Shown: piece after piece, positions 19,495 to 64,000 of the stretch
Layout: the number at the start of each line of letters is the position of its first letter
Numbering within the stretch: position 1 is the first letter of the stretch
Source: Eledone cirrhosa
Taxonomy: Eukaryota
Direction of reading: 5' to 3'
DNA length: 64,000 nt
NCBI GenBank assembly: GCA_964016885.1
Contig: OZ024740.1
Location: 352,532,001 to 352,596,000, forward strand
Made by a program: the position numbers and the translations under genes
The notes under the pieces: model-generated
What the model was told of the DNA's origin: nothing
Seen by the model: the letters and a program-made list of their open reading frames with translations, nothing else
Databases searched by the model: none

Positions 19495-19648
19495 GATAAT
19501 TTGTATTCCAATGTTACTAAGTAGTTGCATTGGATGGAGTCAACTGACGTCAGAGATTGCTCAACGTATAATAAAGTGTGTTTTAAAATCCGGAGAAAAT
19601 ATGGAGAAAAAATTTACGAAATGGAAATGCGGGTATATAGAATTTATT

Positions 19649-19765
19649 AGGTAACAATTGTTTCTATAGTGTATGAGTTACCTATACCTCGCTATTTGAA
19701 TAATACACAAATATTATCAAAAACCGAAAGTACACTGTAAGCCAACACACCATGTCATCAGACCT
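19649..19765 (-). ncRNA. Type-I hammerhead with ~90-nt helix II
   Basis: AGGT-CTGATGA-CATGGTGTG...TACACTATA-GAAA-CAATTG-TT-ACCT. Confidence 0.8.
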
Positions 19766-21019: not shown

Positions 21020-21208
21020 TATAATTGTTTCTACTTTAGGCACAAGGCCAGCAAATTACCCAGTGCATTACTGGTACTTTATTTTATCGACCCCGTAAGG
21101 ATGAAAGGCAAAGTCAACCTCGGCGGGATTTGAACTCAGATCATAAAGGGACGTAACTATGCTGGAAAGCATGGCGTCCGACCCTCTACCGATACTGCCA
21201 ATCCACCA
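21020..21208 (-). mobile_element. tRNA-type SINE
   Basis: Same family as 15944. Confidence 0.9.
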
Positions 21209-21605
21209 ATGTTACCTTTTTACACCAACGTTTGCAAATTTCTGTCATAAGATATGACTTTCTATAATAATAGTACTAAACACTGTTTTTCTGGACCCCT
21301 TTAGAAATAACCTGCTACTATAATAGCCCTAATAACTTGTCTGTGACATTGTACCACTTTGACCCCTCTAACTAAATTTTGTCCGAACAACACCACTAGA
21401 AGTATCTACTTCCCAGCCAACCTTAGCACGCCTCATTAAGCTAACTGCTGCCAAAACATTCTCTCTTCACAATCTCTACTAGTCTGACAGTCTTAAACCC
21501 TAAGACTCCCTCCACCTTACTCACTTCCCTCTTCCCCTTCTCTTCCTACCTCCTTCTTTATCTTTTATCTAGTGTATAAAATATTTTCATATCATTCTAA
21601 TACAA

Positions 21606-21722
21606 AGGTCTGATGACATGGTGTGTTGGCTTACAGTGTACTTTCGGTTTTGGATAATATTTGTGTATTATTCAAATAGCGAGGTATAGGTAACTCATAC
21701 ACTATAGAAACGATTGTTACCT
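21606..21722 (+). ncRNA. Type-I hammerhead, inverted copy of 19649-19765
   Basis: AGGT-CTGATGA...GAAA-CGATTG-TT-ACCT. Confidence 0.8.
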
Positions 21723-21760
21723 AATAAATTCTATATACCCACATTTCCATTTCGTAAATT

Positions 21761-21873
<113 letters not shown>

Positions 21874-21894
21874 ATATATATATATATATATTGT

Positions 21895-23151
21895 TATATT
21901 TGGGGAGGGTCATATTTGCGTAATATTGCCAGAATTAATAACAGAACACACTCACTGTTTGGTTGGTTTTCGCTTGTCGCTGTCTTTTATATCTGCGATC
22001 TAACTTACTCGGTCCTCAATGTTGCCATTGACTGACCGGCGGTCAAAAATAATACAGATACAATATAGACACAAACACATATATATAGTTTACATAATTT
22101 ACATAAATCTTTCGTTGCACATCTGCAACATCGTCAGTGGTGTTATATTCATTGTTCCTCCTGTTGTGTTGTATGTCTACGCCATTTTTTATTCAGTCTG
22201 TCTATATATTTATTTATTTATTTGCTTGTTTGTTTATCTTATTTTATTTTGTCTTGTTTGCGTGTGTGTATAGTGTTATGTGTGCTATGTGACTAGTGTG
22301 TATAGTGTTGTGTCTGCTGGGTGACTAGTGTGTGTTTATGTGCTTGTTGTTATTGTGCTTGTGTATGTATTTATTTATCTTATTTTATTTTATTTTATTT
22401 ACTTATTTATACTTCTCTTAGGTCAGTGTTGTTTGTTTGGGTGTTGTTGTTGTTCCACTCATTCTTTCTGTTTAGCTTTGGTCTTCTAATTTCTATTTCA
22501 CTGGCCTCTCTGATTTGCCTATCTGCTGGGTCATTCCTATGTTTAGATATTATTCTAATTTCTATGTTGTCTATGTTACCGTCATGTTGTTGTCTAGCAT
22601 GTTCGTATAGTACTGACCCGTTTTTTCGTCCTTTTAGTTCCCCCCAGTGTTGGTCTATCCTTTCAGCTATGCTACGAGCTGTCTCACCTATGTATGTTGT
22701 TGTCATGTTTCTGCAAGTACCCTCTGTACATCTTATGCTATAGACTACGTTTCTAGTTTTACAGTTTATCCGGGGGTTCACCTTACATATGATACATTTC
22801 CTATTGGTACAGTGGGTTTTCTTAAAAGGGTAGGTTTTGCTGATCAGGGATTTTATGGTGGTTCCTGGCTTCTCTACCACCTTTATTTTTAAGTGGGTAC
22901 CATGATGTGGCCTTCCTTACCTTATGTCTAGCCCTATCTAAGCTGTTCTGGAATAGCTTAGATAGGGCTAGACATAAGATAGGGAAGGCCACATCATGGT
23001 ACGACAACCAGAGATATCAGAGTGTCATGTTTGTGGACGCCACCCCTGGAGGGAAATTAGCTAACCAGTGTAGAAAGGCCCTGAGAAAGACCCACTTAAA
23101 AGTAAAGGTGGTAGAGAAGCCAGGAACCACCATAAAATCCCTGATCAGCAG
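21895..23151 (-). mobile_element. Penelope-like element 3' part (GIY-YIG) with a fold-back at its truncated 5' end
   Basis: ORF 22407-22880 CKTRNVVYSIRC..YIGETARSIAERIDQH..RQIREASEI..PKLN. Palindrome centred at 22949-22950. Degenerate HHR at 22101-22140 (CTGACGA-T-GTTGCA/TGCAAC-GAAA on minus). Confidence 0.88.
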
Positions 23152-23930
23152 CGTGCAAGGACTTATTTGTGCATTACAACTCAGCCCTCCATAGAGGCTA
23201 TGTCCTAAATGAACTTACACGGATCACTAATAGATGCAGCGACCCGATGGGTGGTCTCACCCATACCACGCAATTCCGTAATCCACTCAAGTCTAATGGA
23301 TATCCCAAGCGACTGATTAACGGAATTAGAGACCCCAGACCCAATAGACAGACACCCACTAGAAACTTAGATAAAAGCAGGTGCTTCTTTAAAATCCCCC
23401 ACCTGAGTGAATATACCACGAACGCCATCCGCAGGGCCATACGGAGGGAGGGACTTGACATACATTTGGCCCACACAGGACCTTCGCTCCGAAGATGCCT
23501 CTCCACCAAACCCGACGAGTCAGATGGGACGTGTTCCCTCAGCAACTGCCCGATACGGGGGGCAGATTGCCTACGCACCTATGTCGTATATAAGATTCAA
23601 TGCGATAAATGTAACAAGTTTTACATAGGTAGCACCATCCGACCCCTACATGTTCGTATCAAGGAACATGTCAACACCAACGCATCTTCCTTCCGTAAAC
23701 ACATCCTTAAATGCGGAAACCCACAGCGCAGACCCTTGGTCACAGTCCTAGCGACTGAACGCAGCATCGGATCCTTAAGGATAAAGGAAGCACTTGTTAT
23801 TAAGAACCTCAGACCCCCACTTAACAACCGGGCTGAGAGAAATGAGCTGACATGGCTAATTTAACCATAGTGACCAGTAACAGCCCCTACGGCCTATTAT
23901 CTTTCACACGCACGCACTTATATGTATACC

Positions 23931-23966
<36 letters not shown>

Positions 23967-24540
23967 TCTATATTTATACACGCACACATGTTTATACAAC
24001 CTACCACCTTTCACACCCTTTGAATTCCAGCTTCTACGGCCCACTATCTTTCACACACACACACTCACATACATACACACATACACATATACACACACAG
24101 TTACACACACATATATATTTACACACACATATTTTACGGCTTTCACACGCTAGCGCACCCTATTGATTTAATCCAATTGGTCAGTAGCTTTTGCCACAGC
24201 CTATCACGCGCACGCGCATTCTTTCCCTCGTTTGAATTTTCCCCATAACGGCATTCCTATGTTTTAACGACAATACAACTTTCTCCGGCTTAGCCTGTTC
24301 CCCCCTTTTGGAACTTTCCCCCGTTGATGGGCGTGAGCCCAAAATATTGGGATTAAATCTCCACTACGGTAACCCTTCTACCTTTGTTTTGTTTTCCTTT
24401 TTCGTTTCTCTGAATTTTCACTTTTCTCCTATTTCTCACTCACTTCCTACCTCGAGATTTCCTATCTGCATTGTTGTGGCTTTCTAAACTACATATTTTA
24501 CATATTTCACAATGCTTCAAGCAAACTTTAACACCCTCTC
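23152..24540 (+). mobile_element. 5'-truncated Penelope-like element (thumb + GIY-YIG)
   Basis: ORF 23169-23864: LKSNGYP..VVYKIQCDKCNKFYIGSTIRPLHVRIKEH..LRIKEALVIKNLRPPLN. Confidence 0.9.
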
Positions 24541-24549
24541 ATATATATA

Positions 24550-24933
24550 TATAGGAGGTGAGTTTTATTGTAGTACAATAAAGCAATGCAGATATCGGAT
24601 AAGTAGCACTCTACAGTTTGTAGGACTGGAGTATAAATAATATATAAGATCAAAAGATGGTTAAAAGAGTTCCATGTATTTTATTATGCGCATTTCAAAA
24701 AACAAATATCATCATGCGATGACATTTGCGTTTTCGTCAGATAAAACTTTATATCACCTTGAAAAATCCTTCGCAAACATAAACATTTTTTTGACGTTAG
24801 ACCACCCATCCCCAATCCATTATTTTTTTCTCCCTTTCATCTGACGAAAACGCAAATGTCATCGCATGATAATATTTGTTTTTGAAATGCGTATAATAAA
24901 ATACATGGAACTCTTTTAACCATCTTTTGATCT

Positions 24934-24965
<32 letters not shown>

Positions 24966-25051: not shown

Positions 25052-25849
25052 ATTAAAGAAGAAATTAAAAGATGGTTAAAAAAGTTCCATATATTTTATT
25101 ATGCGCATTTCGAAAACAACATCATCCTGGGAAAAAAATTGTGTTCTCATCAGATAAAATAATTGTTTCTACTTTTTGGCACAAGGCCAGCAATTACCCA
25201 GTGCATTACTGATACTTTATTTTATCGACCCCGTAAGGATGAAAGGCAAAATTAACCTCGACGGGATTTGAACTCAGAATAGCAATTCTATGCGTCAAAG
25301 CATGGCGTCCGACCCTTTACCGATACTGGCAATTCAAAATAATGTAACATGATATGAGGCCTAAAAAAAACACTTGTCAACAAGAAAGTGTCATATGTAG
25401 ATTGGACACTTTCTTGTTGACAAGTGTTTTTTAGGCCTCATATCATGTTACATTATTAACTTTGCCTTTCATCCTTACAGGGTCGATAAAATAAAGTACC
25501 AGTAATGTACTGGGTAACTGCTGGTCTTGTGCCTAAAATAGAAACAATTATTTTATCGAAGGTGGATTGGCAGTACCGGTAGAGGGTCAGACGCCATGCT
25601 TTGGTGCATAGAGTTACGGCCCTTGCCATTCTGAGTTCAAATCCCGCCAAGGTTAACTTTGCCTTTCATCCTTATGGAGTCGATAAAATAAAGCACCAGT
25701 TAATAACTGGGTAATTGCTGGCCTTGTGTCAAAAACTAGAAACAATTATTTCATCTGATGAGAACACAATTTTTGTCCCAGGATGATGTTGTTTTCGAAA
25801 TGCGCATAATAAAATATATGGAACTTTTTAAACCATCTTTTAATTTCTT

Positions 25850-25852
<3 letters not shown>
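25052..25852. mobile_element. ~800-bp fold-back: HHR-SINE-core-SINE-HHR (HHRs 25094-25159 minus, 25749-25814 plus; SINEs 25160-25335 minus, 25456-25552 and 25561-25750 plus)
   Basis: Central inverted repeat 25338-25457; arms carry CTGATGA-GAACACAAT..TTGTTTTC-GAAA-TGCGCAT-A. Confidence 0.85.
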
Positions 25853-25935: not shown

Positions 25936-28817
25936 CTCCAGCCTCGGGGTCGCCGACCGCACGGAACCTCTAGACCCACGGACACCATACTTCACACTGA
26001 AGGACCATAAATCCGATTTTGACCGTAAACCCTCCATCAGGCTTATTAACCCAACGAAGTCCGACATAGGGAGAATCAGCAAAAAAATCCTAGACCGCGT
26101 GATACCAAAAGTCAAGCAACACACCCGACTTAGCCTATGGATCAACACCCAGGAAGTAATCTTCTGGTTCAGCAATATGGAGGATAAACGAGAAACTAAA
26201 TTCATACAGTTCGACATAGAGAGCTACTATGCTTCAATCACCTTACCGCTACTTACTGCCGCCTTGGACTTCGCCGAAACACTCGTGCCCATCACCGACC
26301 AGGAAAGAAAAATCATCCTCCACGCCAGGAAGACAGTCTTACTCTTCGACAACTCCAAATGGATAAAGAGAGCTGCCGACTCCCCCTTCGACGTCAGCAT
26401 GGGCGCCACGGATTCGGCGGAGGTCACTGATCTTATAGGATTATTCCTAATAGCCAAACTCACTGATATGTTTCCTGCATTCGGTGGTGGATTGTACCGT
26501 GATGATGGGCTCCTTACCCTTAAAGGGTACAACCCCAGTAGTACAGATCGGGTCCGGAAACAATTAATCAGATTCTTCCGCGACTGGGGATTTAAAATAA
26601 CCCTACAAACGTCCCTGACCCGAGTAAACTTCCTGGACGTAACCCTCGACCTCGAAAACGACATATATACAGGAAACCTAATGACAATCTGCACTACATC
26701 CACCGCCGATCAAACCATCCTAGGAACATCACAAACAACCTGGTCAAAAACATCTCCCTCCGCATATCCCGTTTGTCAGCTAATGAGCGGATATTCGATG
26801 AACATGCGCCTTATTACAACCAGGCCCTCAAGCGGAGTGGTTTCCGGGAGGAAATATCCTACTGTCCAGCTCCCATTAGCGGAACCAGCAGGAGACACCG
26901 CCGCTCACGCAATGTAACATGGTTCAATCCTCCCCACAACGCAGAGGTGACTACTCCCATCGGGAAACTATTCTTTAGGCTCATTGAAAAACACTTCCCA
27001 TTACAACACCGCTACCACAACATAATTAACAAAAATACCATCAAACTCTCTTACAGCACTACACCAAACTTCGCACAAAACATCGTCTCCTCTAACAACA
27101 AAAAACTCAACCCCGATGGCAGAAATAACCTAATTAGCAGTGGAGAACCGACCAGGAGGTGTAATTGCCCGGATAGATCTATTTGCCCACTCGACAATAG
27201 ATGCAGAGACCGTAATGTGATCTACCAGTGCAACGTGAGGACGGATACCTCCAACAAAGCCTATATAGGACTTACCGCATGTGACTTCAAGACCCGGCTA
27301 TACCAACATAGACATACCTTCCGAAACCCGGCCCGGCGTCACGCCACTACACTTTCGGGCCACATATGGGACCTCAAGGACAACAACATCACCTATGATC
27401 TCACTTGGAGATTACTGTCCAGAGCCAATTCTTACACGGGAGGACGCCGTCCGTGCAATTTATGCTCGGAGGAAACTTTACAAATGCTGTTTTCGACGGA
27501 CCAACTCCTAAACAAGAAAGATGAACTGGTTACTGCATGTAAACATAGATTGCGTAGGACTTACCTCGCCCTCAAACCCCATAATGACCCGGGGGGGGGG
27601 GGGGGGTAGACTAGGGCTATAACACCCCAGTTGCCGATTTTGCAATGGGTAACCCCTGCTTGCCAAGGAAGACGTAAGATCTTCTTTGTATTCTTTTATC
27701 GCTTCCTTTATTTCCTTCCCCCCTCTCTCCTTTGTCCTTCTACCCCAGCTCTTCTCCTTTGTCGGCGTCTTTTCTCGCCCACCCGAGGCTGCCCTTTGGC
27801 CCCATGTAGCCTTAGTACCCCCACCGCCCCTCCCCTAGTCTTTGATAGATTTGGCGGACTCCGCCCTTTATAGCAGTTGGCTTAGACCCCGGATATTTTT
27901 CCCCCTTTTACCGACCGCTCCCACTATTCTCTGTGCCCTCTATATTTCTTAGTGGCACATGCCTTATTTTTTCGTTTCAGTATTTCTTGCTTCGCTTTTC
28001 TTCTGGGCGGGGTGGATTCTGAATTTATTTCTCCGTATTCTACCTTTATTTCGTACGAACTTTCATGTAGCTTGTTTTAGATCTTTTAGAGTTAGCATTA
28101 GTATATATTTTTCTCGGGACTCAGAATTATTATCTCGTACAAGTTCACTTTGCTGCACTGGGTCGTTGCTGGCCCGGGATGGAAACCTATTGTTTATTTC
28201 GTGGTAGTCTCTTTAGTATTTTGGCCCCTTTTGTTGACCCGTCACCGTATCATTTACGTACTTATACCTCTTAAAAGGGTCCTTGCCTTATCCGTCCCAC
28301 CTAGTTCTCTTACTTATTTCCTTATTTATTTATTTATTTATTTATTTACTTCTTTCTTTCTTTCTTTATTTTATTCTCGCCTAACAATAGCCTGACACCT
28401 AGGTCGTAGAATTTAATTTACTTTACTTTTTTCTTTACACTTATTTGCTTTTCTTCACTCTCAGTATTTTTTCTTTCCTATTTCTACCCCCCATCGTTCT
28501 ACCTACCGTTCCGACTTCCTCCCCCTCCCCCTCCCCTGTATCCTCTTTGACCTCATGCCCAGCTGTAGCTGGCACTACCAACGCTTGATTGGGTCTACTC
28601 CACCCCCTCCCCTCTTTCTCCTACTGGCAGGTTTAGCCACCATCTCCCCTACTAATTTGCAACCACAGAATTACTACTGATTTTTGACAATCACTTTGAC
28701 CATATATGGAATTACCCCTTGAGAAGATCGGCTATTTAAATACCAGGATAAATTTTCATTTAGTCCAGAATTAGCCGTCGAAACGGCTTGAGCTCAGCTG
28801 TCGGGGTCTTACTGGTT

Positions 28818-28820
<3 letters not shown>
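25931..28820 (+). mobile_element. Penelope-like element (probably Hydra clade), RT + GIY-YIG, one frameshift, inserted in (TA)n
   Basis: ORFs 26099-26917 (FIQFDIESYY, FDVSMGATDSAEVTDLIG, GLYRDDGL) and 26773-27609 (WFNPP, CNCPDRSICPL = CxCx5C, VIYQC..YIG, CNLCSEE). (TA)n at both ends. Confidence 0.95.
28714..28807 (+). ncRNA. Type-I hammerhead, U3-A8 core variant, long helix II
   Basis: ACCCC-TTGAGAA-GATCGGCTA...TAGCCGTC-GAAA-CGGCTTGAGCTCAGCTG-TC-GGGGT. Confidence 0.8.
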
Positions 28821-29654: not shown

Positions 29655-29662
<8 letters not shown>

Positions 29663-31466
29663 CGTAAAATAAGAAAATATTTTTAAAAAAAATTTTAAAA
29701 AATTTTTTTTACTTACTTACTTAAATTTTCACTCCAACTAATTAGTTTCTGCAATGGGATAAAGACAGTTACGTAATTCAACTGTCGAGAATTCATTGCG
29801 TCATCAGGCAGTCTATTCTCAGTTAAGTCTCCAGGCAATGCGCGGACACTGGCGGCTCATATAAAAATAATAATAATTCGGTAGATAGAACAGCTGGCGA
29901 GGACTGGATTCTATGTACCGAAATTCTCACTGCTTCCAGTCAAATGGCCGATTCTAAAGAATCAATCACGTGACATAGAGGCTAGTTAGAAGGAATGGAA
30001 TGGTAAGATGACTGACGCCTACTAACACCCAAAAAAAAAAAAAAAAAATTTTTTTAGAAGTGGTTTTGGCAAGTTTGCTCGACAAATCAGTGATTTGGAG
30101 ATAAATATAGATAATTTAATATATCAACTAACATAAGCGCACAGATGCACGCCCATGCTAGCAAATACACAGGTTATGTCATAGTACCTAGGTGGTTCAA
30201 TGCAGGAGAATGCAGAACAATAATATAAAAGACGTAAAATAAGAAATATTTTTTAAAAAAATTTAAAAAATTTTTTTACTTACTTAAATTTTCACTCCAA
30301 CTAATTAGTTTCTGCAATGGGATAAAGACAGTTACGTAATTCAACTGTCGAGAATTCATTGCGTCATCAGGGAGTCTATTCTCAGTTAAGTCTCCAGGCA
30401 ATGCGCGGACACTGGCGGCTCATATAAAAATAATAATAATTCGGTAGATAGAACAGCTGGCGAGGACTGGATTCTATGTACCGAAATTCTCACTGCTTCC
30501 AGTCAAATGGCCGATTCTAAAGAATTAATCACGTGACATAGAGGCTAGTTAGAAGGAATGGGATGGTAAGATGACTGACGCCTACTAACACCCCCCAAAA
30601 AAAAATATTTTTTAGAAGTGGTTTTGGCAAGTTTGCTCGACAAATCAGTGATTTGGAGATATATATAGATAATTTAATATATCAACTAACATAAGCGCAC
30701 AGATGCACGCCCATGCTAGCAAATACACAGGTTATGTCATAGTACCTAGGTGGTTCAATGCAGGAGAATGCAGAACAATAATATAAAAGACGTAAAATAA
30801 GAAAATATTAAAAAAAAAATTTTTTTTAAATTTGTTTACTTACTTACTTAAATTTTCACTCCAACTAATTAGTTTCTGCAATGGGATAAAGACAGTTACG
30901 TAATTCAACTGTCGAGAATTCATTGCGTCATCAGGGAGTCTATTCTCAGTTAAGTCTCCAGGCAATGCGCGGACACTGGCGGCTCATATAAAAATAATAA
31001 TAATTCGGTAGATAGAACAGCTAGCAAGGACTGGATTCTATGTACCGAAATTCTCACTGCTTCCAGTCAAATGGCCGATTCTAAAGAATCAATCACGTGA
31101 CATAGAGGCTAGTTAGAAGGAATGGGATGGTAAGATGACTGACGCCTACTAACACCCCCCCGAAAAAAAAAATATTTTTTAGAAGTGGTTTTGGCAAGTT
31201 TGCTCGACAAATCAGTTATTTGGAGATAAATATAGATAATTTAATATATCAACTAACATAAGCGCACAGATGCACGCCCATGCTAGCAAATACATAGGTT
31301 ATGTCATAGTACCTAGGTGGTTCAATGCAGGAGAATGCAGAACAATAATATAAAAGACGTAAAATAAGAAAATATAAAAAAAAAAAATTTTTTTTAATTT
31401 TTTTACTTACTTACTTAAATTTTCACTCCAACTAATTAGTTTCTGCAATGGGATAAAGACAGTTAC

Positions 31467-31468
<2 letters not shown>
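29655..31468 (-). mobile_element. Retrozyme-like tandem array: 3.2 copies of a ~565-bp non-coding monomer, one HHR per monomer
   Basis: GACGTAAAATAAG at 29661, 30231, 30789, 31356. HHRs on minus at 29731-29812, 30294-30375, 30858-30939, partial at 31425-31468. (TA)n on both sides. Confidence 0.9.
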
Positions 31469-31540: not shown

Positions 31541-32865
31541 TAGAAGCTGAACCCGGGGCCACTTTTTATTAAGTTAATAATTTGAAAAATATTATTGAAA
31601 GTTTATTATAAAGAAGCAGTTTCAGGAAAAAATAGAAATATGCACTTGAGGCTGGACGGTGTACAATGAGAAGTGGCGCGATGTGAAAAGCGTTGTTTAT
31701 TAACAGCGAAATAACAATATCGATGATATGCAATTTGAAAAATACTACTTACTGTTAGTGGTGGTTTACATGTATTAGAATTAAAATTAGATTTTTGATT
31801 TATCTTTTGAACAAAATAAATATTTATTTACAGTTTCTCACAGAAAAACTATGCTTCATTTTTACATGAATATTTATTTACAGTTTTTAAGTTTTTAACC
31901 GAAACACTATGCTTCATTTTTACATGAATATTTATTTATAGTTTTTAACAGAAAAAAAATTGCTGCGAAATACATTTTTTTTTAACACATGATACGTCAC
32001 GAAGGTAAATGTTTCGAAAAAATGTTAAACTGTATATCGCAACAATATATTGTTTAAAGAAATTATTTTTCTGTTGTTTAAAACTGTAAATCTGTTTTTA
32101 AAAAAATGTATTTAACCGAAACACATGAATATTTATTTACAGTTTTTAACAAAAAAAAATTGCTGCGAAATACATTTTTTTAAAAACAGATTTACAGTTT
32201 TTAACAACAGAAAAAAATTTCTTTAAACAATATATTGTTGTGATATACAGTTTAACATTTTTTCGAAACATTTACCTTCGTGACGTATCGTGTGGTGGGT
32301 GGAGCTAATAATTGAATGTCGATGATGATAATTTAGGACACTAAAACCAAGTATCGCCAAGGGTTTAATTTCTTTTGATGGAAAACAGTGACCGTACTGC
32401 AGAATCGATTTCATAAAACGGTACTGTATGATCGTTAAATGTAGAAGGATAATAGTTTATTAACAGCGAAATAGCAATGTCGATGATATGCAAGTTTAAA
32501 AATGCATATTATGAGGGTTTGTATGATAGTTTACACATTTTCCTGAAACTGCTTCTTTATAATAAACTTTCAATATTTTTCAAATTATTGGTACTGTATG
32601 TTAACAGCGAAAGAACGTTGATGAGTTTAAAAATGTGTATGAAATTGTAAATAAGACAAAAGTATTAGAACAGGGGGAAATAACTCACCGAACGCGATAG
32701 TTTTGGGGCCCCAGGGACCACATTTTTCAAGTTAGAGATTTGAAACCTCATCTATTTGCTTCCTTGGCACTTTTGACATAGGTGTGTAAATTTTCATGTC
32801 AGTCCGACCACGTCTACTACCATTTAACCGTGCACATTTGAATTTCAACCACCTCCATTTCACAA

Positions 32866-34000: not shown

Positions 34001-34095
34001 TATTGTTTCCATAATATAAGAAGTTGGGACAGTGAAATTAAAATACAAGTCATTCTGATCACATTGAGTTCTTCATGTATATGTATATGTAGGAG

Positions 34096-36737
34096 GTGAG
34101 TTTTATTGGCCGGTTCAACAAATTGAATAAGAAAAATAAACAAAAATTTATTCAATTTGATATTGCCAGCTACTATTCTTCTATTTCGCCCTCACTTCTC
34201 AACAATGCTCTATCTTTCGCTTACAAATATTCAGACATCACCACAGATGAACTTCACATCATTCTCACCGCACGTAAAACCATCCTAGAGCTCAACAATG
34301 AATATTGGACCAGAGCTGATACCTTTAACAACTTTGACATCACAATGGGAGCATCCGATTCATCCCAATTGACTGATTTAATTGGTATCTTTATTTTGAA
34401 CTCTTTGAATCGGAAAATTCCTCAACTTCGCGGTGGAATTTATCATGACAATGGACTCTTTACTATTTTAAATTGCAACATAGTTAACCTTAATATTATT
34501 AAGAACAATATACGTAATCTCTTTAACCAACATAACTTAAAAATTGAATTTGATAACAGCATCAAACTAGCTAATTTCTTGGATGTATCTCTTAACCTTG
34601 ACACTGGCCTATATTACCCTTACCATAAAAACAATTAGAACCTAAATTATGTTAATTTTAAATCTAACCACCCCACTAATATTAAGAATGCTATAGTTAG
34701 TAATATTGGAAAAAGAATATCTAACCTATCTTCTAATAAAAACATCTTTGATGCTAACGCCAATTACTATAATAACGCGCTTTCTAAAGCCGGTTATCCT
34801 GATAAAATCAAATATAGTAAAGAAGCAAATTCTAGAAGATCTTACAGTAGAATAATTAATCATGATCATTCCAATAACTTTAATAAAAGACCTAGATACA
34901 AAAACATAATCTGGTATAATGCTCCTTTCTCCATCTCTATTAATAATAATTGTTTCTACTTTAGGCACAAGGCCAGCAATTACCCAGTGCATTACTGGTA
35001 CTTTATTTTATCGACCCCGTAAGGATGAAAGGCAAAGTCAACCTCGGCGGGATTTGAACTCAGATCGTAAAGGGACGTAACTATGCTGGAAAGCATGGTG
35101 TCCGACCCTCTACCGATACTGCCAATCCACCGCCCTATTAATAATAATATTCCTAAATTATTCTTTAGTGCCTTAAATAAATGCTTCCCTCCCTCACATA
35201 TCTATAGTAAAATATTTAACAAACACACGATAAAATTCTCCTATTCGACCTCCTCCAACATCTCCAACATTATCTCTAAACACAACAATAAAATACTAAA
35301 TACTAAATCTCTTCCTTCCAACACTGAATATCATAATAATAGTAATAGTACTCCCGACGTCATTGTTAACTCTAGGCTAATTTCTGCAAACCCAAATACA
35401 ACGTCAAACGCAACTTCGCTAAATGTTCTTAATCCCATTCTAAATCAAGAAACTATTATTCCTATCGTAAATAACTTCTCCAATCCAATCTCTTCTATAG
35501 ATAACACTAGGTCACTTGTTAATAACTCTGTTAATCTCTCTAATCGCAATTGCAATTGCCCTGTTAAAAATAAATGTCCTCTCAACAACCATTGTCTTGA
35601 AAAAAACTTAATCTACGAATGTAAAGTTATAACTGACACCAATTCCTTTACCTATTTTGGTCCACTTCCACCTCCTTTAAAGCTCGTTTTTATAATCATC
35701 ATTCGTCTTTTAAATACCAACTTAAAAGAACCAACACGGCACTCTCAGAACTCATATGGTCCTAGAAAGACAAAAATATTAACTATAACATCTCTTGGAA
35801 AAAGGTTTCTTCTGCTTCTTCATACTTGAACAGTTCTCTATCCAAGACATGCAATCTCTGTTTATGTGAAAAATTTACCATTATATCTAATTTAGATTCT
35901 ATAATAAATAGACGCACTGACTTGTTCTCTCTCTGCTTGCATAAATTCCACAGAACATTCCATAAAGTATACAGCTAATATCTAATACTTTACCAATTTA
36001 AAATCCTTTTCTCAAAGGCACACATATATATATATATACATATATATTTCTTTAAAAATATACCCATCTTTCTACCTTATTTCAATGTTATTTATTATAC
36101 ATTATATAATACTAGTTACTCATTCTATTTCACTCCTATTTATCACTTCCCTTTCTTTCTTTTCCCTTTTTCTTTTCTTTTCTCTTTCTTTTAATTTCTA
36201 ACCCCTAATCTGTACCTTTTCTTCCTAGACACTTCTCAATTATCATTGTGCCTAACGTAGAAACAATTATTACACAGCACAATATATTCTTACTTTATAT
36301 CACCTTAAAAAAATCCTTCGTAAACATAAACATTTTTTTGACGTTAGATTATTCATCCTCAATTCATTATTTTTTTCTCCCTTTCATGCTCATCTAACTT
36401 ATACATATTACACTTATTCATCCTCTCTTCTACTTCTTTCACAATATATCCTTAATTACATTACTATTGCTATATTTTTATATTTTTTAATAATACATAT
36501 CAACAATTTCTTTCCATCGCACATATTATTAAACCCTTAAATATTATTCTTAATACATATTAACAATTTCTTTTCATCGCACATATTATTAAACCCTTAA
36601 ATATACAAACCTTAATTTAACATTATTCTAAAATTTTTCTCTTCGTTAATTTTCAAATTCTTTTAATTTATATATTATCTTCCAACGGTTTTTCAACCTC
36701 TCAATGTAAAACAATATATTTTTCTCAGTTATAAAAG

Positions 36738-37457: not shown

Positions 37458-37518
37458 TAGAAAGAGAGGTTTTTTTTACAAAATGAAAAATAACCGAGGT
37501 GTCCTACACGAGTGAAAG

Positions 37519-37809
37519 TATAAAGAAAAAAAGATGAAATCGAAAATGCAACTGGAGTCTTATTAAAAAAAATATATATATATTTATTTGGTTCCTTTAC
37601 CGGTTTCGCAGTTCTTCTGCTTTTCAAAAGTAGAGTTGAGATGGAGGGTCTGTGGTTTTTCTCACAGATGTGAGAAAAACCACAGACCCTCCATCTCAAC
37701 TCTACTTTTGAAAAGCAGAAGAACTGCGAAACTGGTAAAGGAACCAAATAAATATATATATTTTTAAAAAAATAAGACTCCAGTTGCATTTTCGATTTCA
37801 TCTTTTTTT

Positions 37810-37816
<7 letters not shown>
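37519..37816. mobile_element. ~300-bp near-perfect palindrome with two head-to-head U3-A8 hammerheads (37595-37630 minus, 37705-37740 plus)
   Basis: Centre CTCACA-GA-TGTGAG at 37661-37674. CTT-TTGAAAA-GCAG-AAGAA-CTGC-GAAA-CCGG-TA-AAG. A tail fragment recurs at 58696-58780. Confidence 0.88.
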
Positions 37817-43849: not shown

Positions 43850-45705
43850 ATGCAAAGATTTATGTATAACATAAACCAGAAGATGTATAATATAAACCAG
43901 AACATATATAATTTTTCATGGTATGCTGGTAGCCAGCGAGCTGGACAGATCGGTGATTCCTTGATTATCATTAGGAGTTAAATCTCTATGAATAGTTCCT
44001 AGATTTCTATTATTAATTTTAGTTATAAAGGCGGTGGATTGGCAGTATCGACTGAGGGTCGGACACCATGCTTTGCAGCATAGAGTTACGGCCCTTTATG
44101 ATCTGAGTTCAAATGCCACCGAAGTTAACTTTGCCTTTCATCCTTACGGAGTCGATAAAATAAAGTACCAGTCATGCACTGGGATCGATTTAATCAACTT
44201 TCCCCAAAATTGCTAGCCTTGTTCCTATATAAAAAAAACCCATTAATTTTAGCTATATTTTGGGCAATGTTCTTAGTGGTTGAGTATGAGAGTTTAATTG
44301 TATGTCTATTAAAATTCTACTATATTTATGCGTTTTGGGGAAGCATTTATCAAGAGCATTGAAGAAAAGGTGAGCTAAGTTTTTCTTGATTCCTAGAAAT
44401 AGTGGTGGAGAATACCATAAAATAGAACGAGAACGAATTCTTTTATATGACTTATTGGTTTTATAGGAGTTATATCGATTATAAGATGATTTGACCTAGT
44501 TCTGTCGCTTAAGTTACGGATATTAACATTATTACAATGGCAGTATCGGTAGAGGGTTGGACGCCATGTTTTCTAGCATAGTTACGTCCCTTTACAGTCT
44601 GAGTTCAAATCCCACCGAGGTTAACTTTGCTTTCATCCTTACGGGGTCAATAAAATAAAGTACCAGTAATGTACTGGGTAATTGCTGGCCTTGTGCCTAA
44701 AGTAGAAACAATTATTACAATTGTTGTGAGATGTATATGTATTAGTATTTATATTAAATGAATGTTGATTTATATACGGGGAGGGGGTGTAAGCATGTTT
44801 ATCTATGTATTCAATTTTATCAGGTTAACCTGTTCTATTTAATGCATCGTTATAGTATTTGGCCTTATTGTAAAAAAATTTTTTATTGGCTGAGAGTGTA
44901 GAGATTCTTTGCTGAATACTATTAACTATAGCCCTTTCAACATATCTAGGGTGGTTTGAATGGAAGCTAACATAATTAAGGTTTTCATGGAACGGGTAGT
45001 AAAAGCCAGAAATAAAGTTTAATGTTATATCTAGGAAATCAACTATTCTATTATTATATTCAATTTCGAGTTTAAGACCGTAATTGTTAAAAAGATCAGT
45101 TATAATTTTCTCTTTTCTATTAAGGGCGCTATTATTATGGTTAATTACTACAAAAAAGAGCATCATCTCGATATAAACCTCCGCCAAGCTCAGGTAATCT
45201 TCTGTGAATTAGGTTAAGAATGAAAATTCCAATGAGGTCGGTGACCTGAGCTGGGTCTGTGGGTCCCATAATAATGTCAAAATTTCCAGGTCTATTGGCT
45301 CTAGTCTATAGATCAACATTGAAATCAATTATAATCTTTCTAGCAGTAAGGATAATATTAATTTTATCAGTCGAAAGACCTGTATGTTTTGTTGCGTATC
45401 ATAAGGCGTTGTTAAGTAACGCCGGAGAAATAGAAGTGTAGTAATTGGTTATATCCAGTTGAATAAATTTGGTCTTGCTTTTACTTTGAAGTTTGGTGAA
45501 CCAGTCGATAACCTCATTGGTACTATTCCATAATTTTAGTTGAGATCGAAACTTTAGAACTGGTATGATTCTGTCCAAGATGTTTTTACTATAAGTCTGA
45601 CAGGTAGCTCGGATTCAAAATTGTCCGTATGATTTTTCATATTTAACTTCGGTATTTTAGGTATAAAATGTTCAGTTCTGCGTTCAATCCCAAGTTTAAA
45701 AACAA
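43850..45705 (-). mobile_element. Decayed Penelope-like RT with two SINE insertions (44030-44225; 44537-44716 with TSD ATTATTACAAT)
   Basis: KFIQLDITNYY, VDFLDITLN, SNHP, SIQQRISTLS, IKLSYSTT on minus; many stops. Confidence 0.85.
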
Positions 45706-49592: not shown

Positions 49593-49944
49593 ATGGAGGG
49601 GTAGCCTTCTCGTCACATAGCCGAATCATTTCCGTCTATTCTATCATATTACTTCAGTAATTGTGTATGTCTTGTGCAAAGCTTTTCTTGTAAAGTTATT
49701 TCTATTCTTGTCTCTTACTGATATCCTTAGTATGAACCATAGCACCGCATTTCAAAAACTTCTACTTTGGGTATAACTTGTTTATTTTCTCTTAGCTTAT
49801 TATTCTTCATAGCACGATGTTTCTACAGAGAAATGATGTTTGTTATCTCAGATAAATCAGAATGGATGCAGTAAAAACCTGTTACACCTTTACTCACCAG
49901 AGTACTCGATACTTGGGGTAGTAGAGTGTGGTAATATGAAGGAG

Positions 49945-50035
49945 ATGGAACCCCGACGGCTGAGCTCCTGACGTTTCAACAGCTAGTTCGGAACTAGCTG
50001 TTGAAACGGCAGGTGCTCGGCCTATGGAGTCCCGA
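49945..50035. repeat. Fold-back of a half hammerhead (28714 family)
   Basis: GTTTCAACAGCTAGTTC-G-GAACTAGCTGTTGAAAC, centre 49990. Confidence 0.75.
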
Positions 50036-50038
50036 CTC

Positions 50039-50109
<71 letters not shown>

Positions 50110-50256: not shown

Positions 50257-50297
50257 TACAGATTTGTTTTATAAATAAATATTAACATACCCGGAAA

Positions 50298-50672
50298 AAA
50301 AAGACAACCTTAACGGTTGGAGCTTCCTGGATAGACTATCCAGGAAGCTCCTACCGTTAAGGTTGTCTTTTTATTAAACAAAAGACAATTAAAAATGAGA
50401 AAAATTGTTCAACTTACTCTCATTGTTAATCTGCTAGTTGGAAGAAAATAATAATAAGCTGTCGGAACTAGCATAGGTATCACTGCTAGTACCGGTTGCA
50501 TCTCAGCGCACTCAATAGGAAATGTTAAGTAATCTCCCAGTAATACAACGCACGTACTAGCAGTGATACCTATGCTAGTTCCGACAGCTTATTATTATTT
50601 TCTTCCAACTAGCAGATTAACAATGAGAGTAAGTTGAACAATTTTTCACATTTTTAATTGTCTTTTGTTTAA
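50298..50672. repeat. Two adjacent inverted repeats (50298-50372 with 1-nt loop; 50373-50672 with ~118-bp arms)
   Basis: GGAGCTTCCTGGATAG-A-CTATCCAGGAAGCTCC; AAACAAAAGACAATT...AATTGTCTTTTGTTT. The inner part recurs at 51395-51478. Confidence 0.88.
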
Positions 50673-51217
50673 TATACGCTCTAATACCTATTATATATTT
50701 CTCTCTCACTCACATATTGAATTGTACAAGTTGTGAAAGTGACCAGTTTACGCACGTGGTTGGTCGAAATATGTAGAATTCGAACTCTAACCAGCGCGCT
50801 AATTCTATATCGCTGTCTAATCACCTGTTGGCATTTAATGTCCGAAAAGATTTTAGGCACTACCATTGTTACTATCGCACTATTTCTCGCCATGGGACTT
50901 GGAAACTGGAGCCAAATACTAACATTCTAATGTACAGCGATTGGAGACTGAATTTTCTAATAACCGACTTTTCACTCGCTTGTTAATTTTTTTGAGATAC
51001 GTTGGCTAAGTGCTTATGGGGGGGAGCGGAACTATTTGAATTTCGTCTCCTGCCGTTACGTTAATTTCTGAATCCGTAGCCAATCGGTGGACGGCATTGT
51101 GATGACGCGTAGGGATTTCAGTTGCTATTGTTTTACTAAACTGGCCGTCACCTACAGTCATAGCCGACATGGACTGGAATCGAATTCTGTCCATCGATTG
51201 GTTATTGATTAGTCGAA

Positions 51218-55862: not shown

Positions 55863-56018
55863 CACACATATATACACACAATTACATATATATATATATA
55901 CATATACAAATGCACACATAAATATACACAGAAATATAAACATATACACACACATAAAAAAAATGTTTTTCACATACATACAATATAAATATACACACAA
56001 AAAATTCATATATGTTAA

Positions 56019-56054
<36 letters not shown>

Positions 56055-56057
<3 letters not shown>

Positions 56058-56213
56058 GAAAGACGTAAAATAAGAAAATTATAAAAATTTATTTACTTAC
56101 TAAAATTTCACTCCAACTAATTAGTTTCTGAAAGAGAATAAACATGGTTTCCGATTGGAACAACATGGAGAAATATCCTTTCGTCATCAGGGAGATCTGT
56201 TCTCAGATCTCCC
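56055..56213 (-). ncRNA. Third variant of the array-type hammerhead (56110-56195) plus tail, inverted against a PLE ORF
   Basis: CTCC-CTGATGA-CGAAAGG...TCTTTCA-GAAA-CTAATTAG-TT-GGAG. The tail ATGAAAGACGTAAAATAAG is shared with the 29655 and 61340 arrays. Confidence 0.85.
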
Positions 56214-57315
56214 ATGTTAGTTTTTATTCTAATCATCCTAAAAGTGTTAAGAATGCAATAGTTAACAGTGTACAACAACGAATATCCAGGCTGTCTGCTT
56301 ATAGATCCATATTTAATAGTAAGGCTGTATATTATAATGAAGCGTTACATAAATATTGAGTATATAGAAAAAATACTGAAAATAAAATTAATTATAATCA
56401 CAGTAATCATAATAAAAATGAATATAAAAACAACTTGATGAATAAATCAGGAAAAAAAATAAGAACTAGATCTATAATTTGCTATGCTCCGCCAGCATCT
56501 TTAGCTATTAAAACACCTGTCGCACATTTATTTTTTAAAGCTTTGGATAAATGCTTCCCTGGGTCACATAAATATTACTCTATCTTCAATAGACACACAG
56601 TTAAACTTTCTTATTCAACAACTATGAATATTGGTCAAAATATAGCAAAAATAAATAATAAAAGTCTTAATTTGAACCAACCTATAATTAGCAATAATAA
56701 CAATAATAATAGTTTTCAACTAGCAATAACCACGCCTCGGATAACCCTCATTGGCTATGGTAACAATACATTAGTTAATGGGAATAACAATAATAATAGT
56801 TTAAACACGAATAATAGTAGAAGACCTTTAAATAATAATGTGAATAGTTTAAGGTCTGTAAATAACATTCAGAAGAAATGTAATTGTAGAAAGAGGTCTG
56901 AATGTCCTTTACAAAATAATTGTCTTGACAAGAATCTAGTATAGAAATGTACCATTAAAACAAATAATAATAGATATAACTACATAGGTGCCACTTCATC
57001 TAAATTTAAGGAACGTTGGTATAATCATAGACATTCTTTCAATAAACCAGATAAGAAATGTTCAACTTCACTTTCACAATTAGTATGGTCTTTAAAGGAC
57101 AATAATATTAAATACTCCATCTCTTGGACGAAATTAAAGATTGCTACTTCCTATCAGAACTCAACTATTTCGCAAATTTGCAATCTTTGTAACCTTGAGA
57201 TTCTACAGATAATTACAAATTATGACAATTTAACAATTATTTAGTAGTTGTCATCATAAAATTGGTAAAAATTTCCAGGCAATGGATAATTTTCGAAAAA
57301 ATATTGACAATTAAT
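56213..57315 (+). mobile_element. 5'-truncated Penelope-like element (Hydra-like; thumb + GIY-YIG), decayed
   Basis: SNHPKSVKNAIVNSVQQRISRLS; VKLSYSTT; CNCRKRSECPL; YNYIGATSSKFKERWYNHRHSF; CNLCNLE. Confidence 0.9.
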
Positions 57316-58548
57316 AATTTAAATATATATATAAGTTTTGCCTTATTGCGATAATAATTTATTGATATTTATATGTATTAGAATAATTTCATTAAGAGTC
57401 TCGTTATCCTATGCTTTGATTAGGACAGTTCAATATTTAATTAGACATCAATTATGATATATACAATAGCTGTTTTATGGCTTTCGAAATATCGCTGGAC
57501 GTGAGAGTAGAGATAAGTTATAAATGTTTGTATATGGTGAATGAATTATCTTCCTTTTGTTTACATTGTCCGTAAAAATTTCTTTTCTTTTTGACTAGCT
57601 TGCTAAAATATATTAAATATGAAATATGTAGATTAATAATATATAGACTATCATTAAAAGGAAACTATATATCAAAATAAGTAAATATAACCTTTCATTA
57701 AATTAATGAAATAAAATTTTACAGTTTAATCCTAGGAATTAAATATAAATTAAAGAATAGTAAAGATTTTATAAAGAAAATATCCTAATTAAATAAAATA
57801 ATTTGGGTAATAAATAATCTAAATATATTATATGTATTGATGGTGATATACGCATGGTATTATATTTTAATACATATTTAATAATTATTTAAATACGCTT
57901 TAAAGATGAATTCTTTTAAAGTTGTAACAAAATATTTATAGAATATCTTACCTTAAAATTAAAAATTATAATAATCTATAATAAGTTAAATTAAATTATA
58001 TAAATTTATAATTAAACTAAATATGTGATTGCTATAGAAAGTAATTTATACTGATTAATTTTGATATAATATATAAGTATAATTAACTAAAGCATAATCA
58101 AATACAAGAGATATTCTATTGTTTATGTGAATAGATTTGATGTCTTATTTGATCTAACATTTGAAAACAACGTTTTTTTATTATCCCCCTCTATTCGATG
58201 TTCCCTTATTTTTCTTTACCCCTCTTTGTTCCCTTTTACTTTCCCCACACCTTACCTCTCTTTTGTCGTTATTCCTCTTTTCTTTTTTGTATATTTCTTT
58301 TATTCATTCATCCATTTATTTTTTTAATCATTTATCTAGTCATGTATGTATTTATTTATTTATTTCTTGCCTTTCCTCTTCTTTACACCTCCTCTTATAT
58401 CTCTAATTTGCTCAACGTCCTTTTCTTCTTTAAGTTTATCTTATTATTTGTGATATAAAAAGGTTGAGATTTGATGAAATAAATCACTGCCAATACTGGA
58501 ATTGAATAATCAAGACCGTAGCGGTATGTCATATATCAAATCATATAT

Positions 58549-58608
58549 TTTGTCTGATGAGGACGTACTGAAAAAACAACACAGTACCTTTGAAATATAT
58601 ATAATAAA
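58549..58608 (+). ncRNA. Type-I hammerhead
   Basis: TTTGT-CTGATGA-GGACGTACTG...CAGTACCTTT-GAAA-TATATAT-A-ATAAA. Confidence 0.78.
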
Positions 58609-58652
58609 GTATATATTTTGATTATGAGAATATTTTTCATTTGTTAACATTT

Positions 58653-58698
<46 letters not shown>

Positions 58699-58933
58699 AA
58701 AATAAGACTCCAGTTGCATTTTCGATTTCATCTTTTTTTCTTTATACTTTCACTCGTGTAGGACACCTCGGATATTTTTCATTTTGTTATTATATATACA
58801 TGTAATTGTGTGTATATATGTACATGTTTATACGTGTGTATACATGTTTTTGTGCGTCTGTGTATGTATGTATATATTCGTGTACGTATGTATATGTGTA
58901 TATGCATGCAACTGTACGTATGCATGTGTGTTG

Positions 58934-59784: not shown

Positions 59785-60133
59785 GTAAGTATGTGTGTAT
59801 ACGTACATACATATATGTATACAGACGTACAGTAGCATGCATATATATATATATATATACATACAGGTACACATACATATATGCACGTATCAGTTTAGTA
59901 TATACTTTCGAACGTTCAACTATCTGACAGATGGGTATACGGTGCTGATGATAGCTAACAAGCTTGAAACTAGTACATCGTTCCTGTGTCAGTGTTGAAC
60001 AAAAAGGTGACGTGGTTGCCTTAACACCGTACGGCATAAAAATTCAGGCTGTTCAGTTTGTTTACAAACGAACAAAGCGGCGTTATAATAAGCGTCCGCT
60101 AAACTGATACGTGCATATATGTATGTGTACCTG

Positions 60134-60215
<82 letters not shown>

Positions 60216-60268
60216 TGCTACTGTACGTCTGTATACATATATGTATGTACGTATACACACATACTTAT
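59785..60268. repeat. Inverted repeat, arms 59785-59898 and 60099-60268, ~200-bp spacer
   Basis: TAAGTATGTGTGTATACGTAC...GCACGTATCAGTTTAG and its reverse complement; the internal (TA)n differs in length between arms. Confidence 0.88.
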
Positions 60269-61239: not shown

Positions 61240-61288
61240 CATGTTTGATGATCCTGTGAGTGCACAGGTGAAACTTCAGAGCAACATG
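61240..61288 (+). ncRNA. Degenerate hammerhead; partial inverted copy at 63472-63521, related fold-back at 54290-54392
   Basis: CATGT-TTGATGA-TCCTGTG-AGTG-CACAGGT-GAAA-CTTCAGAG-CA-ACATG. Confidence 0.65.
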
Positions 61289-61305
61289 ACTCATCTATTA
61301 GCCAT

Positions 61306-61339
<34 letters not shown>

Positions 61340-61344
<5 letters not shown>

Positions 61345-63146
61345 GACGTAAAATAAGAAAATTAAAAAAATTAAAAATCAACTTACTTACTAAAATTTTC
61401 ACTCCAACTAATTAGTTTCTGTAAGGGGATAAATATAGTTACGTAATATAACTATAGAGAATTCCTTACGTCATCAGGGAGTCTATTCTCAGCTAAGTTC
61501 CCAGGCGATGCGCGGACACTAGGAACCCATATAAAAATAATAATTCAGTGGATGGAATAAAGCTAGCGAGGACTAAATTCCAGAGCACTGAAAAAATTCA
61601 CTGCCTCTGGTCAGTGGCAGATTCTAAAGAATCAGTCACGTGACACTGAGGTTAATCAGTTAGGAGCGGGGTGGTATTATGACAAGAGCTTACTACTACC
61701 ATGAATCAGCAGTAAATTTTGGCAAGTTTTGCTCAACAAATAATTTGGAGATAAATATAGAGAATTAGTACATCTACCAACATATGTGTACAGATGTACA
61801 CCCATGCTAGCAAATATATATGTTATGTCTTAGTACCTTTGTGGTTCTATGCAGGGGAATGCAGAACAATTATATGAAAAACGTAAAATAAGAAAATTTT
61901 AAAAATTAAAAATCAACTTACTAAAATTTTCACTCCAACTAATTAGTTTCTGTAAGGGGATAAATATAGTTACGTAATATAACTATAGAGAATTCCTTAC
62001 GTCATCAGGGAGTCTATTCTCAGCTAAGTTCCCAGGCGATGCGCGGACACTAGGAACCCATATAAAAATAATAATTCAGTGGATGGAATAAAGCTAGCGA
62101 GGACTAAATTCCAGAGCACTGAAAAAATTCACTGCCTCTGGTCAGTGGCAGATTCTAAAAAATCAGTCACGTGACACTGAGGTTAATCAGTTAAGAGCAG
62201 GGTGGTATTATGACTAGAGCCTACTACTACCATGAATCAGCAGTAAATTTTGGCAAGTTTTGCTCAACAAATAATTTGGAGATAAATATAGAGAATTAGT
62301 ACATCTACCAACATATGTGTACAGATGTACACCGCCTGGGAACTTAGCTGAGAATAGACTCCCTGATGACGTAAGGAATTCTCTATAGTTATATTATGTA
62401 ACTATATTTATCCCCTTACAGAAACTAATTAGTTGGAGTGAAAATTTTAGTAAGTAAGTTGATTTTTAATTTTTAAAATTTTCTTATTTTTCGTCTTTCA
62501 TATAATTGTTCTGCACCCCCCTGCATAGAACCACAAAGGTACTAAGACATAACATATATATTTGCTAGCATGGGTGTACATCTGTACACATATGTTGGTA
62601 GATGTACTAATTCTCTATATTTATCTCCAAATTATTTGTTGAGCAAAACTTGCCAAAATTTACTGCTGATTCATGGTAGTAGTAGGCTCTTGTCATAATA
62701 CCACCCCGCTCCTAACTGATTAACCTCAGTGTCACGTGACTGATTCTTTAGAATCTGCCACTGACCAGAGGCAGTGAATTTTTTCAGTGCTCTGGAATTT
62801 AGTCCTCGCTAGCTTTATTCCATCCACTGAATTATTATTTTTATATGTTTTCCTAGTGTCCGCGCATCGCCTGGGAACTTAGCTGAGAATAGACTCCCTG
62901 ATGACGTAAGGAATTCTCTATAGTTATATTACGTAACTATATTTATCCCCTTACAGAAACTAATTAGTTGGAGTGAAAATTTTAGTAAGTAAGTTGATTT
63001 TTAATTTTTTAAATTTTCTTATTTTACGTCTTTCATATAATTGTTCTGCATCCCCCTGCATAGAACCACAAAGGTACTAAGACATAACATATATATTTGC
63101 TAGCATGGGTGTACATCTGTACACATATGTTGGTAGATGTACTAAT

Positions 63147-63247: not shown

Positions 63248-63395
63248 AAGTGGTTACACAACAGTTAGTTCACCATACCGAGAACAATTGTTTCACCTTA
63301 GCGAATCCTCAGCTCGTAATGGTCCATTACGAGCTGAGGACCCGCTAAGGTGAAACAATTGTTCTCGGTATAGTGAACTAACTGTTGTGTAACCA

Positions 63396-63398
<3 letters not shown>
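63248..63398. mobile_element. 150-bp palindrome with two head-to-head minimal hammerheads (63279-63316 minus, 63330-63367 plus)
   Basis: Centre GTAATGG-T-CCATTAC. CGAG-CTGAGGA-CCCGCTAAGGT-GAAA-CAATTG-TT-CTCG. Confidence 0.85.
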
Positions 63399-63475
<77 letters not shown>

Positions 63476-63810
63476 GGCTAATAGATGAGTCATGTTGCTC
63501 TGAAGTTTCACCTGTGCACTCGATATACGGTAGTTCTTTATACGGTAAATTCACAGATACGGTTTTGGGTAATTACTACCATCAATTCTATTTACGGTAA
63601 AAAATTTCACAGATACGGTTTTTGGTCGTGTTTGGTTTATATTGTACCGTAGCGCCACCTGTAGTAAGCAATAAATTCCCCCTTGAATTCGTGGAAACTG
63701 ACAGCTATTCGAATTCTAGGAAAATTGTGTTACTACTGCTATCATACTAACTGACCTTACCGAGAAACTGGCCAATCACGAGCGAGTTCAGATATTGGTC
63801 GATGACGTAA

Positions 63811-63902
63811 TAACTCTTAACTGATCACTTCAGTTCGGCAAACTAGCGTGTCCTCTCAGTGAGAGAATTTTTGCCGAACTGAAGTGATCAGTTAAGAGTT
63901 AT
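63811..63902. repeat. Inverted repeat, ~32-bp arms
   Basis: TAACTCTTAACTGATCACTTCAGTTCGGCAAAA ... TTTTGCCGAACTGAAGTGATCAGTTAAGAGTTA. Confidence 0.85.
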
Positions 63903-64000
63903 GAAGTCATTCAAAGCAAGAGAAAACCCGACGGCGTGTTTTTGGAGTATAATTATCACGGCATATCTTATAACCCCATATCTCATGACCCCAAAACATC

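Follow-up and report, generated by a model that had tools for sequence, protein, structure and literature searches.

Layout of the locus

The window, i.e. the whole stretch of 64,000 nucleotides that was analysed, consists of AT-rich animal DNA which is dense in (TA)n runs, SINE-like repeats and PLE remnants. Near its right end lies a composite that reaches from one (TA)n run to the next and joins two unrelated 3' ends head-to-head:

56018 to 56057, no strand: (TA)n target run, left edge
56058 to 56114, minus strand: 3' tail of the array (retrozyme) family, its terminus matching the terminal units of both arrays
56111 to 56194, minus strand: type I hammerhead (HHR) motif, from motif and stem analysis
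56190 to 56213, no strand: perfect 10-bp hairpin, of which 56190-56206 is array-family sequence and 56207-56213 the mirror
56214 to 57314, plus strand: 5'-truncated, dead ORF of a Hydra-type PLE, from PLE homology and motifs
56710 to 56761, minus strand: U4 snRNA fragment of approximately 50 nt (Rfam RF00015)
57315 to 58542, plus strand: PLE 3' UTR, multi-copy and pyrimidine-rich in its distal part, from contig depth and C+T content
58543 to 58654, plus strand: likely the PLE's own 3' hammerhead and tail, from contigs and the layout of a sibling copy
58655 to 58695, no strand: (TA)n target run, right edge

The comparison family is represented by two arrays in the same window:

29658 to 31467, minus strand: array A, tandem non-coding HHR units of 563-567 nt
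61341 to 63146, no strand: array B, units of 531-535 nt, an inverted head-to-head composite of one family

An earlier note on this DNA had described a minus-strand HHR and tail joined through a small hairpin to a plus-strand, 5'-truncated PLE ORF, and this arrangement was found as described (HHR and tail at 56058-56206, hairpin at 56190-56213, ORF from 56214). Both outer ends of the composite (56058-58654) are standard family termini at (TA)n. Homology to the array family ends at 56206 and homology to sibling PLEs begins exactly at 56214, and only 7 mirror nucleotides stand between the halves, with neither TA nor any host base as target DNA. These nucleotides (56207-56213) are the reverse complement of 56190-56196 and lie on the strand expected for the first-strand cDNA of an array-type RNA. 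The hairpin has a perfect stem of 10 bp and a loop of 4 nt; its DNA fold of -11.0 kcal/mol was reached by none of 1000 mononucleotide shuffles, and after masking of microsatellites, the window contains only approximately nine separate sites (21 overlapping hits) with a perfect 10-bp hairpin and a loop of 3-8 nt.

Such a perfect hairpin, in a window rich in fold-backs, raises the question of an assembly or amplification chimera, the more so as the junction was unseen in the sequencing runs searched: no piece spans 56190-56213 among the listed contigs of runs X1-X3, which come from one sample and whose contig depth is a rough guide only. However, the window's own copy of the locus seems to be absent from X1-X3, where all contig depth at 56300 and 56944 carries another letter, so that these runs cannot test the junction either way. 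The arms of the other fold-backs in the window are only 80-95% identical, which marks them as old genomic features, and both halves of the composite end at the correct family termini. We therefore consider a chimera very improbable and regard the junction as a real feature, a variant of a known PLE architecture.

The minus-strand hammerhead and its relation to the arrays

The CUGANGA...GAAA...NUH core with stems I-III of a type I hammerhead is present at 56111-56194. Stem I has 4 bp, the CUGAUGA core lies at 56190-56184, stem II spans 55 nt with a C.A pair (position 10.1-11.1) at its base, and stem III is palindromic; the triplet is GUU, with a predicted cut after 56115. The tail stops at ...TTTCA/TTTA-(TA)n, and so do the terminal units at 29658 and 61341. 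In a BLAST comparison 56058-56206 matched all eight array tail ends (8/8) with 70-80% identity; a second comparison gave 70-82%, with some of its matches reaching into the (TA)n. The ungapped column identity to six aligned array copies is only 80-85%, whereas it is 84-88% between arrays A and B and 93-99% among the units within each array. Hence, the earlier claim that tail and HHR are the same as in the arrays holds at the level of the family, and the junction copy is, judged by these identities, a distinct third subfamily.

The fold is well preserved across this family. In the structure test 111 of 112 cells were paired (99%), in contrast to 30-49% in slid controls, and at two pairs of stem II both partners differ among the three subfamilies, in an alignment of 7 rows that represents approximately three independent lineages. 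All three subfamilies have the basal C.A pair of stem II and the GUU triplet, and stem II covaries. The minimum-energy fold of the junction copy itself is not that of an HHR (z +1.0), which makes self-cleavage by this copy doubtful. Additional stem II variants were noticed on the loose ends of contigs (at least on those listed, 24 of 1524), so the array HHR family appears large and diverse. The Rfam hammerhead model matched nothing in the region, and both HHRs, i.e. the junction copy and the one at 58554, were identified by motif and stem analysis. Rfam microRNA matches were rejected as microsatellite noise, and an exact scan with the 25-nt HHR motif gave 0 matches each in metagenome, viral and prokaryote contigs.

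The arrays themselves yielded four cut-to-cut monomers of 531-567 nt with 35-36% GC, whose longest ATG-initiated ORFs comprise 27-42 aa. When folded as circles, these monomers lie 3.4-5.9 SD below 25 dinucleotide shuffles. Arrays A and B each hold at least two tandem non-coding units with one type I HHR per unit, as is characteristic of non-LTR retrozymes, and the most likely reading is that they are non-autonomous retrozymes which some PLE enzyme mobilises.

The truncated Hydra-type PLE

The PLE ORF (56214-57314) retains an RT thumb-like end, an N-rich linker, CNCx5C, GIY-YIG, CxxC and CxH, while the RT core, where the RWK and DKT motifs would lie, was lost through the 5' truncation. It is interrupted by stops at 56357 and 56942 and by a frameshift near 57235, and it ends at 57314. 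The assignment to the CxCx5C, Hydra-like type was confirmed: CNC-x5-C at 56879-56905 corresponds to the CxCx5C linker of the Hydra clade and is unchanged in four copies in the window. The GIY-YIG match to Pfam PF01541 (E 8e-4, 20.1 bits) stays under the gathering cut-off of 22.6, and the EN domain is 39-51% identical to those of sibling copies, consistent with a C-terminal GIY-YIG domain. Inspection by eye placed CxxC (CNLC, then E) at 57179-57190 and CxH (CHH, past the frameshift) at 57249-57257; CCHH is absent, with a single C between the GIY and YIG halves, likewise by eye. Together with the 3' HHR at 58554 and the (TA)n at 58655, both as in the Hydra clade, these motifs identify the right half as a Hydra-type PLE in every respect that can be assessed from the remaining sequence. 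A scan of metagenome contigs for the EN domain gave 415 pattern matches with 0 confirmed, and the protein search with this domain found no relative among 28 candidates; the sibling ORF at 26596 had 17 relatives with 31-44% identity in the protein search. In a relative at approximately 42.9 kb, which belongs to another family, the RT reads DKT by eye. A PDZ match on the RT at 41.9 kb was below the cut-off and was treated as chance.

The U4 fragment (RF00015, 52.8 bits, gathering threshold 46) lies antisense and in frame within the (AAT/AAC)n linker. It is without counterpart in the other copies seen, which skip from 56709 to 56765 or from 56711 to 56761, with net losses of 48 and 51 nt among them, and loose ends of contigs at 56761, at least among those listed (24 of 1524), coincide with its edge. 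The fragment resembles a tailless retrocopy. A 20-bp repeat (56696-56715 / 56783-56802) was considered as its TSD and rejected because the other copies lack only approximately 50 nt. SINE-like repeats at 34943-35136 and 44520-44717 lie inside the AAT-rich linkers of two other Hydra ORFs, i.e. in the same kind of site as the U4 piece.

The probable 3' end of the PLE

Downstream of the ORF a second HHR was found with its core at 58554, which differs from the junction HHR in having a stem I of 11 bp, TATATA as stem III and an AUA triplet. BLAST gave no match between the two and their stems differ, in agreement with the caveat of the earlier note that the downstream HHR belongs to a different family.

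Contigs from X1-X3 cover 30 of 30 bins of 56058-58654. In X1 the summed depth is similar for ORF bins (848-6,550) and UTR bins (717-3,907), climbs to 18,640 and then attains 180,000-277,000 at the 58554 HHR, which is, as a rough guide, the pile-up expected of a PLE 3' end. Three listed contigs run from 58418/58428 through this HHR. Moreover, joints from 58636 to 57101 (X1 and X3) and from 58641 to 57101 (X1) place its tail directly before ORF sequence, i.e. in a partial tandem; such joints were called at 80% likeness and among the joints listed (15 of 24). No piece spanning the whole UTR (57315-58542) was present among the listed contigs. The distal UTR has 77% C+T, compared with 76% in two sibling copies. 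The sibling Hydra copy at 34-37 kb, with 67-69% nucleotide identity, follows the same plan with a 1.0-kb UTR and a distal part of 76% pyrimidines, and its HHR has the AUA triplet together with an almost identical stem I and a palindromic stem III of 6 nt. Since the UTR depth is ORF-like, contigs link the tail to the ORF and the sibling has the same layout, the 58554 HHR is most likely this PLE's own 3' end; the possibility that it is an unrelated neighbour was rejected. Two further observations on sibling ends were made by eye. The 34-kb copy starts with approximately 18 nt (34092-34110) that match the far tail end of its own HHR family (24555-24573) in inverted orientation, and the 26-kb copy ends in an HHR-like fold (28700-28819, plus strand) whose core departs from CUGANGA and which escaped the motif scan.

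This bears directly on the reading in which the inverted HHR represents a pLTR of the Hydra PLE or one of its subfamilies and gave rise to the arrays. Parts of the literature, represented here and below by the accessible portions of each source, lend this reading some plausibility: PLEs as a rule bear an inverted pLTR where their 5' end is truncated (PMC8557442), homology to PLE pLTRs has been reported for Xenopus retrozymes (bioRxiv 10.64898/2026.07.22.740005), and one rotifer PLE family has long unique spacers and variable 3' ends (PMC3846280). In addition, the junction subfamily could come from an unseen autonomous PLE. Nevertheless, we regard the reading as unlikely. The present copy ends in a different HHR, tied by contigs to its own UTR and ORF, and the caveat just mentioned thus decides against a derivation from this PLE. 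No alignment was obtained between 56058-56206 and 58486-58654, so that the left piece has the role of an inverted pLTR but is, judged by sequence, not the element's own 3' end. In five same-family inverted pairs of the window the arms are 88-99% identical, whereas these two ends fail to align. The four array monomers and the junction HHR gave only short AT-rich matches, without real homology, to any of the eight PLE regions in the window (best E 0.03), this PLE's terminus included. Furthermore, 56058-56206 is unlinked to the PLE body among the joints listed (15 of 24). Of the inverted pLTR layout that had been claimed, the head-to-head inversion with a junction palindrome known from PLEs remains; of the alternative that the arrays derive from, or template-switch with, the PLE pLTR, some template switch or end-joining remains, and the derivation is not supported.

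Other head-to-head joins in the window

Five same-family composites stand head-to-head, with arms that are 88-99% identical end to end:

19607 to 21764
24640 to 24940
25057 to 25851
61341 to 63146
63249 to 63397

A second mixed join was found at 21891-24553. There, a PLE (22407-22916, minus strand) folds back in a 106-nt hairpin (22897-23002), re-reads itself to approximately 23150 and then meets another PLE (ORF to 23864, plus strand), with a protein identity between the two of 29% over 105 aa. Mixed joins thus account for two of the seven composites, which were chosen by eye and with heads joining unclassified DNA (37278, 48678, 50250) excluded. As the second mixed join links unrelated PLEs, such joins need no kinship between the partners. 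The proposal that the PLE is the autonomous partner of the arrays therefore lacks support, and the junction leaves the enzyme that mobilises them unnamed.

Fold-back hairpins cap further heads at 22897, 25338, 50295 and 63310. The distance from the fold-back apex to the HHR core is 11 nt at 63323 and 11.5 nt at 56190-56213, compared with 50 to 244 nt in the other cases. At 63249-63397 two HHR-like ends stand head-to-head, with the apex 11 nt upstream of each core and a geometry as at 56190-56213. The composite at 25057-25851 contains a SINE-like repeat fused to an HHR and tail, and this chimera lies in an 88%-identical inverted pair with a 120-nt hairpin; apparently, a SINE travelled with a PLE end.

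Origin of the composite

We favour, with a probability of roughly 0.5, a single insertion of PLE type, during which a TA run was cut and each of its strands was extended on a different RNA. In this scenario the TA run would be cut by a PLE endonuclease, and the plus strand would prime cDNA synthesis on a retrozyme-family RNA at the usual tail start; this cDNA would halt 16 nt beyond the HHR core. Its end could then fold on a 3-bp mini-hairpin and copy 7 nt of itself (snap-back). A template switch or end-joining would finally have connected the snap-back end with the truncated cDNA of the Hydra PLE primed on the opposite strand. The U4 piece, the stops and the frameshift would probably be later additions.

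The standard termini on both sides, the exact join, the capped heads elsewhere and the second mixed join all argue for one event. Several of its elements have precedents. A PLE protein cuts and extends both target strands in vitro, is a predicted dimer and uses internal tail start sites (PMC11167929), palindromes occur at inverted PLE junctions (PMC3846280), and two-RNA insertions in opposite orientation were described for L1 (PMC11702581). However, there is a single junction only, and a TSD is unreadable inside (TA)n, so that a single-event origin stays a proposal. In the accessible part of the rotifer study no cross-mobilisation between PLE families was reported (PMC3846280), which counts against one event. 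Moreover, the identical sequence results if the two parts inserted one after the other and a deletion with snap-back repair came next.

In such a sequence of events the array-type copy would have come first, and a PLE insertion or a break would later have hit the same or a neighbouring TA run; the intervening DNA would have been lost and snap-back repair would have left the 7-nt mirror. This is the most serious alternative, quite conceivable although we would not bet on it. The array-type tail is extremely abundant, with a summed depth of 295,000-384,000 compared with approximately 600-6,500 for the PLE ORF, both families use the same target, three array-type ends adjoin (TA)n within the 64 kb, and a resected plus-strand end would fold back likewise. 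It accounts less readily for a join without any residual TA or host base, and for an apex-to-core distance equal to that of the same-family pair at 63323, with two cases only.

As the PLE likely keeps a different HHR of its own at the far end, the join is probably a mixed insertion, and it is no proof that the repeat came from this PLE. The wider proposal that PLE integration routinely loads two different RNAs, one per strand, at a single (TA)n cut, and that the Hydra enzyme carried the retrozyme RNA in trans, is put forward tentatively and appears to us rather doubtful at present.

Comparison with known systems

The Hydra clade of C-terminal EN+ PLEs (Craig et al., 2021, PMC8557442) shares with the right half, in the accessible text, CxCx5C, a C-terminal GIY-YIG without CCHH, the flanking CxxC and CxH motifs, a 3' HHR, (TA)n insertion and an inverted piece at the truncated 5' end. 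The present locus differs in that the inverted piece is from another family, the RT motifs are truncated away and a U4 fragment sits in the linker. The PLEs analysed by Arkhipova et al. (2013, PMC3846280) share the junction palindrome, there read as self-priming, and an N-rich (AAY)n linker prone to in-frame inserts; in the part of that study available, both arms of an inversion come from one family and cross-mobilisation is not seen, whereas here the families are mixed. The L1 insertions (PMC11702581) likewise have two DNA ends that are extended on different templates and then joined, but they involve ORF2p, cultured human cells and poly(A) priming instead of PLE-type tails at (TA)n.

The arrays resemble the non-LTR retrozymes of Cervera and de la Pena (2020, PMC7229834), as far as the text accessible shows, in that their units are tandem, non-coding and low in GC, carry a single type I HHR and, as circles, fold better than shuffles. 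Their units of 531-567 nt exceed the 170-400 nt given there and fall within the range of 51-972 bp in the available part of Li, Clavereau and Pollet (2026, bioRxiv 10.64898/2026.07.22.740005). They differ from known retrozymes in the minimal palindromic stem III, the basal C.A pair in stem II and the GUU triplet; moreover, they are known here from DNA alone and have no homology to a PLE pLTR in the window. A PLE is the proposed mobiliser of animal retrozymes (PMC7229834; bioRxiv 10.64898/2026.07.22.740005), and the preprint argues in its accessible text for an origin of retrozymes from PLE pLTRs; the general idea of retrozymes arising from PLEs is therefore already in print. Inverted pLTRs, junction palindromes and the link between retrozymes and PLEs have thus all been published. 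For mixed-family PLE joins, we found no description in the literature searched; subscription papers and supplements may hold examples.

The locus bears on how PLEs form their inverted ends and on which enzymes mobilise animal retrozymes. So far, the link between retrozymes and PLEs has been based on their co-occurrence and on homology to pLTRs. A join between unrelated families would record a shared integration event directly, and such joins could be counted in any long-read assembly. If the loading of two RNAs is true, mixed joins would form a genome-wide record that pairs orphan retrozyme families with the enzymes mobilising them, and inverted PLE ends could arise from two independently primed cDNAs. 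The locus, being one dead copy, is a lead rather than a demonstration. It also calls for caution, since an inverted HHR adjoining a PLE need not be the pLTR of that PLE.

Further inverted repeats in the window

Short inverted duplications with 99-100% identity were observed at 61258-61305 / 63474-63521, 59788-59898 / 60099-60265 and 37478-37564 / 58701-58787. They flank (TA)n runs and PLE-end blocks and may be tails or local inversions made at the time of insertion. Long fold-back palindromes with 80-94% identity occur at 31986-32294, 37523-37812, 50295-50674, 49939-50041 and 63802-63910.
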